A DNA stretch of 64,000 nt from an uncultured Candidatus Berkelbacteria bacterium (lineage in GTDB: Bacteria; Patescibacteriota; UBA1384; UBA12157), in the NCBI GenBank assembly GCA_903877885.1, contig CAIRFN010000006.1, positions 3,342 through 67,341 on the forward strand, given 5' to 3'. Position numbers and translations under genes: made by a program. Below the pieces are notes generated by a model. That model was not told the origin of the DNA, did no database searches, and saw only the letters and a program-made list of their open reading frames with translations. How positions within the stretch are numbered: the stretch's first letter is position 1; every line of letters starts with the position of its first letter. Below are positions 48,881 to 57,214 of the stretch, piece by piece.

Positions 48881-49798
48881 ATGAATAATGAATCATTACA
48901 ACCATTTGAAATTCAACGTGAAGCGTTAGCTGAGCGATTGAATCTAAGAGAACAGTGGGAATCACAAGTTAAAATCTTGAATGAGACTGGTATTTTGGAG
49001 ATCCTTCCAGAGGCCCAAGAGTTGGGAATCATTGGTATTGACGGTCGAGAGCATCCAGTACCAGATTTTCAGGAAATTATGTCTCGAATTTCGCCGGAGC
49101 AGATGGAAGTCTTAGAGAAAAAGAATGAGCAAGGATTCAATAAAATGGTCCTAGTTCCTTTTGCTGTACCGCTAGACATATTGATTGATCGATACAAAAA
49201 GCTTCTTATTGAAAAAGATGCGGAAGGATCACTCTCATCAACTGATGGTTCAAAACTTAATCTCGATCGCGACCAACCAATCTATGTTTGGGACAAATAT
49301 ACCGGTGCTGATGCAAGCGGTGAGTTAGTTTATTTCCCGAATACATTTGATCAACAAAATCACGGTGGTAAAACAAAAAATACCCTAATACAAGAAGGTA
49401 AATCTTGGCAATTTGAATTACTTGAAGAAAATATTAATATCCCTGCTAAAGGTCAGGGAGAGATACTTGACGGCCGCAAACAACTAGAAGCCGGACAATC
49501 ACCAAATCAATATTTAAAAGAATTACAAATCGATCCTCAATATCAAAATGAGGTCGGCTTGACACCAGAAGCATGGTTGGTTTTAGCTATAACCCAATTA
49601 AAAGAAAACCATGGCCAAATTGACGATTATCAAGGTCAAGGCAAAATAAATTTTCTTACGGGTGCCTATTTCCCCGGTTCTGACAGTGTCCCGCGCGCGC
49701 GCTGGAGCCGTGACGGTCGTCGGGCGTTCTTGGACAGGAGCGTTCCCTCTGGCTCGCTTTCGAGCATTGGGTGTCGCTCCTCGGTGGAAATTCAGTAA
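48881..49798 (+). CDS. Tandem paralog 2; DGR target gene carrying variable repeat VR1 at its 3' end
   Basis: Same conserved N-terminus. The last ~38 codons (…VPRARWSRDGRRAFLDRSVPSGSLSSIGCRSSVEIQ) are the VR copy of the template repeat. Confidence 0.7.
   Translation: MNNESLQPFEIQREALAERLNLREQWESQVKILNETGILEILPEAQELGIIGIDGREHPVPDFQEIMSRISPEQMEVLEKKNEQGFNKMVLVPFAVPLDILIDRYKKLLIEKDAEGSLSSTDGSKLNLDRDQPIYVWDKYTGADASGELVYFPNTFDQQNHGGKTKNTLIQEGKSWQFELLEENINIPAKGQGEILDGRKQLEAGQSPNQYLKELQIDPQYQNEVGLTPEAWLVLAITQLKENHGQIDDYQGQGKINFLTGAYFPGSDSVPRARWSRDGRRAFLDRSVPSGSLSSIGCRSSVEIQ
49676..49789 (+). repeat. DGR variable repeat VR1
   Basis: ~114 bp matching the template repeat at 54708..54821, except at the template's adenine positions (all 17 differences fall on them). 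Confidence 0.8.
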
Positions 49799-49893
49799 TT
49801 TGATATTTGGCTTTTAAACTTTCTTTTTTCTTTATCTTTGATTCGGTATCCCGCCTTCGGCGGGCCACTGCAAAAATTTTAAAGGAGATAGAT

Positions 49894-50781
49894 ATGGAGA
49901 GTAATATGAGTGAAAATCTTCAACCATTTGAAATACAGCGCGAAGCACTTGCTGAACGGCTAAAACTCAAAGACCAGTGGGCATCACAGGTTAAGATGCT
50001 GAATGAAGCGGGTGTTTTGGAATTGCTTCCAGAGAGTCAGGAGCTAGGAATTATCGGAATTGATGGACAAGAATATGCAATACCTAGTTATGAACAAATT
50101 TTAGGTCGTATTACTCAAGGAAAAGCTGAGATTTTAGAAAATCAAACAGAAAACGGTTATAAGCAATTAATTTTAACTCCTTTCGCAATGCCTTTGAGGC
50201 AACTGTGTAAATTAGTTGAAGGATCATTTAAGAAAGTCTTATCAGAAAACCAAGTTGTTGATGCTTATGGAAGTGATGAAAGAATCAATTCTGATAACTT
50301 TATTGAAGATAATGGAAATATTCTCGATTCCGATATTAACGGAGAAATGGTTTACTACCCAAACTCAGACGATAGCAAAGACGGTTTGACAAAAATAGAT
50401 TGCATTAAAGAAAATGGTGGTTGGGAAATTGATTTTATTGCCAAAGAACCTCAGAAATACATACAAGATATCAACAAGCAAAAAAAGGCCATGGTGCAAG
50501 GTGGATTTAGAGGATTAACTCTTGAAAGCTGGTTGACTCAGTCAATGAATTTTTTCCAGAACGAGAAAAAGTTTTCAGATTATCTCGAACCATGTCTTTT
50601 GGCGGGATCGTCTCTGCGAGAGAAGAGGACTATCCCGGCAGCATGGTTTGCTGATAATCGATCTAATTACAAAGGTAAATATTTAGTAATAAAAACTTTA
50701 GAAGAAAATCGTAATCAAAATAAAGCATTTGGCGGTTTTTCGCAAACTGACGGAAATGCGCGTTTCAGCGTGAATTTATAA
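49894..50781 (+). CDS. Tandem paralog 3
   Basis: Start chosen at ATG 49894 after RBS AAAGGAG; the ORF track starts earlier at 49807. N-terminus MESNMSENLQPFEIQREALAERLKLKDQW... Confidence 0.6.
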   Translation: MESNMSENLQPFEIQREALAERLKLKDQWASQVKMLNEAGVLELLPESQELGIIGIDGQEYAIPSYEQILGRITQGKAEILENQTENGYKQLILTPFAMPLRQLCKLVEGSFKKVLSENQVVDAYGSDERINSDNFIEDNGNILDSDINGEMVYYPNSDDSKDGLTKIDCIKENGGWEIDFIAKEPQKYIQDINKQKKAMVQGGFRGLTLESWLTQSMNFFQNEKKFSDYLEPCLLAGSSLREKRTIPAAWFADNRSNYKGKYLVIKTLEENRNQNKAFGGFSQTDGNARFSVNL

Positions 50782-50790
50782 AGGGAAAAT

Positions 50791-54821: not shown

Positions 54822-54842
54822 GTTCTTTTTGTTTTAAGAAAG

Positions 54843-55884
54843 GGCTTAATATCAAAAACGTGCACCTAGTTTTGCAAAATATAGTTAATTATTTTGTCTT
54901 TTAGTTCTTTGGTAAAGCCTCTGTGAATGTTTACTTTTTGTTTTAGCCAACTAAAACTGCCCTCTAAAGAATTGGTGGTTTTGGGGATATTAAGTTCAGG
55001 ATATTTTAGATACGTAAAAAGATATGGCAAATTAGTTTTAAGGCTTCTAAAAGCCGCTCGCGTTCTCTTGTGAGTATAATGCCATCGGTTTGTAATTTGG
55101 TCGGTTGTTCTCTCCTTTAGAAACTCTTGCCACTTTTGGTGCCATAGGAGTAGTTTTTGGGTAAATTCTTTCTCGGTGGCATAGGTCAAAGTATCGCTAA
55201 TAGCTTTGAGTTCTAAGCTTGCTTCTAACTTTGGGTTTAAGGTTAAATAACGCTGGATAATTTGTTTTTGATGAAAATGACACATCTGGACTGGGACATC
55301 TAAAAATAGATTTCTCACTCCGGGTCTGCCATCCAAAACAATAGCTTTAAACTTAAAGCCTTGATTTTCTAGGGTAATTCTTCCCATTAGGTACTCGTTG
55401 ATTGTCTCGAATATAACAGGTTTGAAATAGAGATTACGTTTGAGCTCGACCGCTCTAAAAACCAGAAAACCGTATGCTCTGCCAAAGAAAGTAGCATCGA
55501 CAACAAAAACTAGACCATCAGGTGTGGTCTTCTTTTTAATGGTTTTCGCTTTCTCGATTTTAGTTCTAACCCAGTTGATGCTTTTGCCGTACTCGCAAGA
55601 GAGATTCTTGAGAGTCTGGCGCTTTCCGACATATTTTCCCAGGATAATTTGTTCTAATTTTTGAGGTCTGGATTTCGTTTGAAAATAACTTTGGCAATCT
55701 TTGCAAAAATATCTTTGCTTTTTTGCCGAGCGAGTACTTTTACCCTTTTTTACGCAACGATTTGAACTGCATTTAGGACAGTTTTTTTAACCATGTTTAC
55801 ATCCTCCTGTAAATTAACTTTAAATTACTGGTTCAAATATATCACATTCAGGTTAAGTTAGGTGCACGTTTTTGATATTAAGCC
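54843..55884 (-). mobile_element. IS1-family-like insertion sequence (1042 bp) with 26-bp terminal inverted repeats and 8-bp target-site duplication TAAGAAAG
   Basis: IRL GGCTTAATATCAAAAACGTGCACCTA (54843..54868) is the exact reverse complement of IRR (55859..55884). The direct repeat TAAGAAAG sits at 54835..54842 and 55885..55892. Confidence 0.8.
54866..55794 (-). CDS. IS1-like transposase (InsA-type zinc finger fused to DDE domain); reading frame requires a -1 shift in an A7 run at codon 4
   Basis: After RBS AGGAGG and ATG at 55794, the 0-frame stops after 14 codons. The -1 frame gives ...CPKCSSNRCVKKGKSTRSAKKQRYFCKDCQSYF... (the IS1 InsA C-x2-C…QRY-x-C-x2-C finger). It continues to ...TNSLEGSFSWLKQK... 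and a stop at 54866. Confidence 0.6.
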
Positions 55885-56222
55885 TAAGAAAGAGATCGAA
55901 TCCATCCGCCAAGCATGCGGCCGATTTCTCTTAAATCAGATTGCGCTTGGAAAATTTTGGTTTCATTCCCTAAATGCAGTTCCAAGCAGGCTCTTAGTTT
56001 CAGAGTAATTATTTCTAATCGGCCGGAAGCTTTAAGGAGATAAGAAGATTTTAGGGTTTTCGGCGCATTTTTAGCCATAATTAGCTCTTCAAGCAGATCC
56101 AAAATCGAATTTTCAAGACTCATGCCCAAAGAATAGCGCCATCTTTTTTCGAGCTTGGCGTTAAATTCAAGAATGAATTTATATAAATCGTAGGATTGAT
56201 TAATGATGGGTAATATTTCCAT
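55884..56222 (-). CDS. avd: DGR accessory variability determinant (Avd-like four-helix-bundle protein)
   Basis: 112 aa; ...RWRYSLGMSL... and C-terminal ...EIGRMLGGWIRSLS resemble Bordetella bAvd (…EVGRILGSWIARV…). Adjacent to the RT gene. Confidence 0.7.
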   Translation of the reverse strand: MEILPIINQSYDLYKFILEFNAKLEKRWRYSLGMSLENSILDLLEELIMAKNAPKTLKSSYLLKASGRLEIITLKLRACLELHLGNETKIFQAQSDLREIGRMLGGWIRSLS

Positions 56223-57214
56223 TGATTTAAGTATAGCAAATATTTATTTTTCCTGGTACACTTTTCGCCGAGGTAAAAGAAAAACATCGGAGTTGGAAGA
56301 GTATCAATATTATTTAGAAAAAAATATTTTAGAACTTTATGGACGGCTAAATGATGGTAACTATCAGCATGGTGGCTATAGAAGTTTTTGGGTTTCTGAT
56401 TCCAAACGCCGTAAAATCGCCGTCGCTTCAATCGATGATAGAATAGTCCATCGTCTGTTATACGAATTTCTCGTGAGTATTTTTGATAAAACTTTTATTT
56501 ATGATGCTTGGAGTTGCCGGAAAAATAAGGGTATTGTCGGCGCAATCGATAGGGCTCAAGAATTTTCCTATAAATATAAAGACGGATATTTCTGGAAAGC
56601 GGATATTAAAAAATTCTTTGATTATGTTGACCACGAAAATCTTCGGCAGTTCCTTTTTAGAAGAGTTGGTTGCGAGAACGCTAAAAGATTATTAAATGAG
56701 GTGATCTCAAGTTACGGACTCGAGAGAGAGAGAGAGAGAGAGAGAGAGAGAGAGAGACGGGCTGCGGCCCTACTTACCCGCCGGCAGGCGGGGAATACCA
56801 ATCGGAAATTTGACCAGCCAGATTTTTGCCAATATTTATCTTAATGAACTCGACCGGTTTGTAAAACATGGTTTAAAAGCCAAAGCTTATTTAAGATATG
56901 GTGACGATTTTGCTATCTTCTCGCATGATTTAGACGAACTTCGTGACATGAGGCTGAAAACAATCGAATTCATTACTAATCATTTAAAATTGATTTTGAA
57001 TTCAAGAGCTGATTCTATTCATAAGACCAAACAAGGACTTTATTTTCTAGGTGTTCGTATTTATCCCAACGGGCGAAGATTATCTAATCGAAACAGGGGA
57101 AGAGTTTTTCGCAGGTTAAATAACCGGAATATATCCGGCTATCGAGGAATAATTAACCGGCATGATCATAAAAAGTTGAGAGAGTTTGATTGGGCTGTTA
57201 AAGATTTGATTTAA
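56203..57214 (+). CDS. DGR reverse transcriptase, interrupted by a frameshift within a (GA)18 tract (two overlapping ORFs 56203..56844 and 56810..57214)
   Basis: ORF1 carries RT motifs 1-2 (…DRIVHRLLY…DAWSCRKNKG…FDYVDHENL…). ORF2 carries the DGR-RT hallmark GIPIGNLTSQIFANIYLNELD (seen in frame 2 just upstream of its Met) and catalytic YGDDF. Confidence 0.8.
56722..56757. repeat. (GA)18 dinucleotide microsatellite inside the RT gene
   Basis: 36 nt of perfect GA repeat. Both reading frames are open from 56705 to 56844; (GA)19 or (GA)16 would join the two RT ORFs in frame. Confidence 0.9.

Follow-up and report, generated by a model that had tools for sequence, protein, structure and literature searches.

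The 64-kb stretch of DNA studied here (hereafter the window), from an uncultured Candidatus Berkelbacteria bacterium, contains a diversity-generating retroelement (DGR) whose reverse transcriptase (RT) gene is split between two reading frames, and the question that this locus raises is whether such an element is decaying or has been switched off in a reversible manner. The best explanation, which we consider probable, is that of a DGR of the candidate phyla radiation (CPR) with architecture B3, in which the RT is OFF owing to a phase-variable repeat tract that changes length by slipped-strand mispairing, and which is also disrupted by an insertion sequence (IS). The original prediction for this locus took the element as intact, overlooking both the RT frameshift and the IS, and as unusual; its headline was right, the features that it singled out as unusual were mostly not, and what makes the locus interesting is the proposed repeat-tract switch. 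The picture of the locus thereby changes: what had been taken for an intact and unusual DGR is a typical one for CPR bacteria, IS-disrupted and probably switched off.

The 23-mer TTGGGTGTCGCTCCTCGGTGGAA, which closes every repeat of the element, is present in exactly three copies in the window (ending at 49789, 54412, and 54821), such that the template repeat (TR) and the two variable repeats (VRs) share their final 23 nt, a segment resembling the initiation of mutagenic homing (IMH) sequence. The TR (54708..54821, plus strand; 114 nt, 29 A) is non-coding, whereas VR1 (49676..49789, plus strand) and VR2 (54299..54412, plus strand) lie in the second and the seventh of seven paralogous genes, and the reading frames of both target genes are in register with the TR. 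Ungapped alignment revealed that VR1 differs from the TR at 18 positions, all of which are TR adenines (18/18; hypergeometric p ~9e-14), and that VR2 differs at 22 positions, of which 21 are TR adenines (21/22; p ~2e-15). The single non-adenine mismatch of VR2 (G54709 to C) is located at the extreme 5' edge of the TR, beyond the narrower VR2 coordinates (54311..54412) of the original prediction. Thus, the adenine-confined pattern described there was reproduced on realignment, but the 17 differing positions that it counted were not, the union of VR1 and VR2 comprising 24 distinct substituted TR adenines, mostly in AAC or AAT codons. Clearly, VR1 and VR2 have both been diversified independently in the past.

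The gene called avd (55884..56222, minus strand) encodes a 112-aa protein that matched PF22296 (bAvd) above its cut-off (E 2.5e-10, 41.2 bits; cut-off 40) and NF033474 under its cut-off (E 1.3e-16, 60.8 bits; cut-off 80), in agreement with the earlier assignment. As also noted earlier, it is antisense to the RT gene and the two starts overlap, the avd ATG (56222-56220) and the RT ATG (56203) lying on opposite strands with a 20-nt overlap. The RT gene itself is not intact and consists of two open reading frames (ORFs) in different frames: an N-terminal ORF (56203..56844, plus strand; 213 aa) that contains motifs 1-3, reads through a repeat tract and stops out of frame, and a C-terminal part (56758..57214, plus strand, frame +1; …DGLRPYLPAGRRGIPIGNLTSQ…YGDDF…) that runs without interruption from the end of the tract to its stop codon. 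When the halves were joined in silico, a hidden Markov model (HMM) search matched them to RVT_1 at 7.8e-16, and the C-terminal part carries the GIPIGNLTSQIFANIYLNELD, IGNLTSQ, and YGDDF motifs. Structure modeling supported a C-type lectin (CLec) fold for the targets, whose genes carry the VR at the 3' end. The core of the original call (two VRs in a seven-paralog array, a non-coding TR, an Avd, and a DGR-type RT) is therefore upheld by the repeats and the HMM matches, and, given the adenine-specific TR/VR pattern, the Avd and RT matches, the DGR motifs, the CLec-fold target, and the B3 layout, the locus is a genuine DGR of CPR type and architecture B3.

This layout is also where the supposed peculiarities of the element disappear. 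The order of TR, antisense avd, and RT is the B3 order, and the identical arrangement, in which avd lies upstream of the RT on the other strand and directly adjoins the RT start, was found in 103 of 104 related loci; architecture B3, TR-(avd)-RT, accounts for 90% of CPR DGRs (Wu et al., 2018; PMC5758913). The antisense avd between TR and RT is thus normal. Likewise, the lack of a signal peptide is typical, as targets of CPR (clade 2) DGRs are usually without transmembrane or signal segments or recognizable domains (Roux et al., 2021; PMC8144416), and the presence of two targets is not exceptional either, since multiple targets are normal for CPR DGRs and several targets occur in ~15% of DGRs.

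The frameshift site in the RT is a (GA)18 simple sequence repeat (56722..56757, plus strand), which is the sole dinucleotide repeat of at least six units in the 64-kb window. Three-frame translation showed that the RT resumes in frame +1 directly after the tract, which is positioned in the flexible linker that separates RT motif 3 from the GIPIGNLTSQ motif, and that the frame is restored by 16 or 19 GA units only. When an ON allele was modeled with AlphaFold2 (AF2), confidence was lowest in the (ER)n stretch, suggesting that the tract site would tolerate changes in length. The RT of the window is present on 10 public contigs, with (GA)18 on seven and (GA)17 on three, both lengths being out of frame, and an identical RT N-terminal ORF is present on 7 contigs; L126, which came from another sample, has (GA)17 and is otherwise identical to the window over 8171 nt.

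We scanned one genome per prokaryotic species (GTDB representatives) for (GA)7 or more located 15-45 nt upstream of PIGNLTSQ, and found that at least 119 species-representative genomes, nearly all of them CPR, carry (GA)7-35 at the equivalent RT site. Among the matches listed, to which the counts in this paragraph refer, clustering of the tract RTs at 70% identity gave 64 clusters, and the 113 loci with both halves comprise 27 that are in frame, 49 that are shifted by +1, and 37 that are shifted by +2. Hence 86 of 113 are out of frame, and because 85 of these 86 OFF loci have stop-free N- and C-terminal halves, the out-of-frame RT alleles are not decaying.

In a separate set of 100 unselected metagenomic RTs, the gene was in frame in 87 of 88 cases without a linker repeat vs. 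3 of 10 with a repeat (Fisher p 7e-8), and ~10% of the sampled CPR-type RTs carried the tract, about three quarters of those being out of frame. On viral contigs, DGR RTs were in frame in all cases (115/115) and the tract pattern was found in none (0/115). Changes in tract length were evident between close relatives: L072 and L089 have (GA)14 and (GA)13, and L201 and L210 have (CT)16 and (CT)21, in each case with 800-nt flanks that are 100% identical. Moreover, in two RT clusters with identities of 90% or more (P0209 and P0173), full-length alleles occur beside split ones with other numbers of repeat units, such that ON and OFF alleles were seen within one lineage in both; the lineage of the window showed only OFF alleles. 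We conclude that the tract is hypermutable and widespread among CPR DGR RTs.

The same loci could be described as plain decay, namely dying DGRs with ordinary lesions, in which GA tracts are mutational hotspots that persist in an often dispensable RT and regulate nothing. The window copy, with two independent lesions and frozen VRs, suits this description, as do an ON fraction that is not above the neutral one third and a previous survey in which more than half of the candidate DGRs were set aside because of premature stops or truncations (Wu et al., 2018; PMC5758913). Decay sits poorly, however, with out-of-frame RTs that have no other stop in either half, with ON and OFF alleles inside lineages, and with tract-free RTs that are almost never broken. 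Nor does it sit well with tracts of two motifs, GA and CT, at a single permissive loop throughout 64 clusters and nowhere else, as no other dinucleotide repeat of at least seven units was found in the 779 kb flanking tract RTs. We therefore regard decay as unlikely. The idea that errors of assembly or sequencing produced the out-of-frame lengths, and that the RT is intact in the cells, is scarcely credible: although dinucleotide repeats are prone to PCR stutter and all data are metagenome assemblies, (GA)18 on seven contigs and (GA)17 on three were obtained from separate assemblies, tracts of 14-70 nt are well within read length, and an error rate of 76% is implausible when tract-free RTs are 97-100% in frame.

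Another way to express an OFF allele would be recoding, in which RNA polymerase slippage by GA units or a ribosomal shift produces RT from the split gene and the tract sets a low constitutive RT level instead of an on/off state. A large share of out-of-frame alleles whose halves are intact is also what obligatory recoding would give, the IS transposase of the same locus likewise requires a shift (at an A7 run), and a GC-rich hairpin is located 3' of the tract in the window RT. This hairpin, however, is marginal (z -1.9), not significant, and not seen in most relatives; the tract lacks a canonical slippery heptamer; +1, +2, and in-frame alleles are all common, and no single directional shift would serve them all; and changes in length were directly observed at the DNA level. 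Recoding thus appears very unlikely to us, and slipped-strand phase variation remains the reading that we prefer.

A protein-level need for an ER loop was considered as the reason for the tract and was rejected on codon usage and on the CT variants. In the window genome, GAG makes up 19% of Glu codons and AGA 23% of Arg codons; since both are minority codons and since CT (probably also AC) repeats occupy the equivalent site, the tract is a DNA-level feature. The AC variant is suggested by one protein (P0190), which has THTHTH at the linker site. The use of CT or AC in place of GA suggests that the repeat may have arisen independently more than once at one position. As a separate observation, the tract is followed by GTAAA ('ESK' in frame) in 23 of the 86 out-of-frame loci among the matches listed (L007-L125), and consequently one of the out-of-frame phases meets a TAA stop 2 nt past the tract.

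The second lesion of the window copy is an IS256-family element of 1042 bp (54843..55884, minus strand) with a transposase gene, perfect 26-bp inverted repeats (54843-54868 and 55859-55884), and an 8-bp target-site duplication, TAAGAAAG, on the left (54835..54842) and on the right (55885..55892). The transposase ATG (55795, minus strand) is out of frame with a 305-codon body at an A7 run (55782-55788), and A8 would fuse them; the rebuilt transposase (A7 read as A8) matched NF048019, an IS256-family transposase of 'variant Zn-binding type' (E 1.7e-88, 296.8 bits; cut-off 150). This frameshift could be a mutation or could reflect programmed slippage, as in some IS elements. The insertion point is 13 nt 3' of the TR, and neither the TR nor Avd was cut, although the TR and avd are now 1 kb apart; the avd stop spans the IS end, reading TAG now and TAA before the insertion, with the protein intact. 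Removing 54843-55892 reconstructs the IS-free junction as TTTGTTTTAAGAAAGAGATCG.

The junction between the IS and avd was confirmed by L005, L006, and L126, and other contigs break or diverge at the IS ends. One of these, L001 (a 50.7-kb contig), matches the window up to the last IS base and then, from 17004 onward, enters a type I restriction-modification (HsdM) region. We rejected L001 as the true arrangement, as its right IS junction is without a target duplication and the three contigs named above support the window. The IS is multicopy, and L001 is either chimeric or the record of an IS-mediated rearrangement. In the Bordetella model, priming of reverse transcription needs RNA located 3' of the TR, and by analogy we infer that the IS would disable priming.

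As for the present state of this copy, target 1 (P0001) is represented by one single sequence on 17 public contigs and target 2 (P0002) by one single sequence on 18, and no target variants at 90% identity or above were found on these 17-18 contigs, which are consensus sequences from possibly related samples. Other clusters of the target family show hypervariability that coincides with the final ~45 residues, that is, with the VR. CPR clade 2 DGRs have also been reported to be less active than average (Roux et al., 2021; PMC8144416). The invariant VRs, together with the occurrence of only (GA)17 and (GA)18 alleles on ten contigs, are suggestive of a window copy that is silent at present.

We propose the following mechanism. 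According to the established DGR mechanism, plus-strand TR RNA would be reverse transcribed by RT-Avd with misincorporation opposite adenines, and the resulting cDNA would replace the VRs of two of the seven paralogous, presumably cytoplasmic CLec-fold proteins, recoding ~24 adenine positions on a predicted ligand-binding face. In the window, the out-of-frame (GA)18 tract would silence the RT, and the IS256-family insertion 13 nt past the TR would act as a second block. Slipped-strand mispairing would shift the repeat number by single units, leaving each OFF allele one step from ON, so that the tract could toggle RT synthesis and thereby gate bursts of mutagenic retrohoming. The tract would then be a hypermutable contingency switch common to a deep clade of CPR DGR RTs and not a random lesion. 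We base the phase-variation reading on a hypermutable intragenic tract, on alleles in three phases, on genes that are otherwise intact, and on the single step between OFF and ON. On balance we lean, by a little, toward the view that the dinucleotide repeat (GA, sometimes CT or AC) is a heritable and reversible on/off switch for retrohoming, with most cells OFF and rare slippage turning the RT ON and thereby opening up new sequences of the variable proteins.

Several points weigh against such a switch. The in-frame share among the matches listed (24%) is slightly under the neutral one third (p 0.036), and neutral slippage with a mild cost would fit this ON fraction as well as an adaptive switch. 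None of the 10 contigs with the window RT bears an ON allele, all having 17 or 18 units, and given the IS beside the TR the window copy may simply be dead, with its tract drifting. The contigs with identical VRs may stem from related samples, making VR invariance weak evidence, and the evidence as a whole consists of assembled consensus sequences. In addition, the need for RNA 3' of the TR is established solely in the Bordetella phage system. In the RT N-terminal half of L072 and L089, a Trp that is almost always conserved is replaced by an in-frame TGA (FV*R vs. FVWR), which is either a nonsense mutation or a sign that the host reads UGA as sense, and which blurs the ON/OFF call of these two loci. 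Finally, full-text literature yielded no report of a DGR with phase variation, slipped-strand mispairing, or repeats, in a coverage that did not extend to Paul et al. (2017), such that an earlier description is possible; the repeat-tract switch is apparently a common, undescribed feature of CPR DGR RTs. Because the in-frame share lies slightly under the neutral expectation, selection for switching, in contrast to mere tolerance of slippage, is our inference; that the switch controls diversification is likewise a proposal.

The targets of this element belong to an array of seven genes on the plus strand: paralog 1 (47979..48878), paralog 2 or DGR target 1 (48881..49798; 305 aa, CLec fold predicted), paralog 3 (49894..50781), paralog 4 (50791..51675), paralog 5 (51705..52592), paralog 6 (52589..53506), and paralog 7 or DGR target 2 (53516..54421; 301 aa, 63% identity to target 1). 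A match to the TR is limited to paralogs 2 and 7, which carry VR1 and VR2, respectively, and is lacking, for instance, in paralogs 1 and 3. The conserved N-terminus of ~95 aa that had been described for the array is real, with a mean identity that drops from 68% in the N-terminal 95 aa to 31% in the remainder, and no hydrophobic stretch in the seven paralogs exceeds 7 residues. A profile of the target family found no match among PDB sequences, and PADLOC returned no match for the targets, for the ~1030-aa protein described next, or for their neighbors.

The start of paralog 1 is overlapped by a gene for a ~1030-aa protein of unknown fold (44894..47986, plus strand), for which no Pfam, NCBIfam, PADLOC, or PDB sequence match was found. 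Full-length homologues of this protein (59% and 51% identity) adjoin target-family genes in two other contigs, L247 (6862-9981) and L249 (11059-14142), where AbiEii genes accompany both; the linkage is thus seen in three unrelated loci. L249 has the order target-TR-(avd)-RT-1027-aa gene-target, with a template that directly adjoins the avd stop and an RT that has no repeat tract. By this recurrent neighborhood, the ~1030-aa protein is a partner to which the target family is genetically linked, and one may speculate that the DGR diversifies a conserved two-component module with a possibly conflict-related function. The target module shared with this uncharacterized protein is a second lead from the locus.

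The host is supported as a Berkelbacteria-like CPR bacterium by RecG, the best named relatives of which are from Berkelbacteria/Patescibacteria (62-65% identity), and the CPR-like nature of the genome in the original prediction is accordingly supported. The proposal that the DGR sits inside an integrated element fared less evenly. In its favor, a serine recombinase beside a tRNA-Leu, a coupling protein of a type IV secretion system (T4SS), and a relaxase (Replic_Relax) are encoded upstream of the DGR; on the other hand, a search for att-type direct repeats bounding such an element gave nothing usable and no right boundary, and the equivalent target module elsewhere sits among housekeeping genes. 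The recombinase, coupling-protein, and relaxase block (34000-41000) has a GC content of 41-47%, compared with 37% for the window as a whole and 29-31% for the 28-31 kb region, as would fit a foreign origin of this block; the target array is near the average, and the profile is not decisive.

Downstream of the RT, a PLD-family nuclease-like gene (57247-57972, minus strand; weak PADLOC matches to MkoC/DrmC PLD domains) and a gene for a small helix-turn-helix (HTH) regulator (58048-58254, plus strand; weak PADLOC match) follow directly on every contig that carries the RT of the window. Farther on, a tRNA-Phe(GAA) gene (60417-60697) has an anticodon loop that is apparently interrupted by a group I intron (Rfam match at 60437-60664), and ARAGORN made no call for it. 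The 3' end of this tRNA, TCCTGCCCCCAGGCACCA (18-mer, 60680-60697), has a second copy 73 nt downstream (60753-60770), and this duplication may be a remnant attachment site. An Rfam scan of 54300-57300 found no RNA family, even at E up to 1, and in a promoter and terminator scan the promoters were not above the shuffled background.

Cellular control of DGR activity is largely unknown, and an unchecked RT is presumably costly. If the repeat tract is a switch, it would provide a concrete and testable control mechanism for DGRs, in which one localized hypermutation mechanism gates another, and it would explain the lower metagenomic activity of CPR clade 2 DGRs. It would also account for many of the 'broken' RTs that surveys discard, implying that pipelines demanding an intact RT undercount and mislabel CPR DGRs, and it would make tract length a simple read-level marker that can be related to VR diversity in time series.

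Among known systems, the CPR B3 DGRs (Wu et al., 2018, PMC5758913; clade 2 of Roux et al., 2021, PMC8144416) resemble the window locus in gene order, strands, and an avd that is head-to-head with the RT, in a TR that abuts the avd 3' end, in several CLec-fold targets without signal peptide or known domains, in adenine-specific mutagenesis, and in the CPR host. The window differs from them in the IS between TR and avd, in an array of seven targets of which two are templated, and in an RT frame that is interrupted by a dinucleotide repeat, a feature absent from both PMC5758913 and PMC8144416. The targets also recall the intracellular sensors that DGRs diversify in the conflict systems of multicellular bacteria, which are reported (Doré et al., 2024; PMC10907252) to have a CLec-type variable domain without export signal and to be linked to conflict-type genes, as AbiEii is in L247 and L249; unlike those sensors as described there, the window targets have no fusion to a STAND NTPase or effector and their partner is the ~1030-aa protein, and a defense role of the target module is a matter of speculation.

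The DGR of Bordetella phage BPP-1 (mtd-avd-TR-brt) shares with the window an RT, an Avd, a TR, and a CLec-fold gene whose 3' end holds the VR, as well as A-to-N substitutions and a conserved GC-rich 3' repeat end (IMH-like). Its genes, in contrast, are on one strand, it is phage-borne with a tail-fiber target, and its RT has no repeat tract, as was the case for all sampled viral DGR RTs (0/115). For the tract itself, the closest parallel is provided by oipA, sabA, and hopZ of Helicobacter pylori, in which CT repeats bring about dinucleotide-repeat phase variation of coding genes. The switched CPR gene, unlike those of H. pylori, encodes an enzyme of targeted hypermutation and not a surface antigen or a restriction-modification function, its tract is mid-gene in a permissive polymerase loop, and its switching is a proposal. 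The two nevertheless have in common an intragenic dinucleotide tract, frame shifts by single units, ON and OFF alleles in close relatives, and OFF alleles that are otherwise intact.

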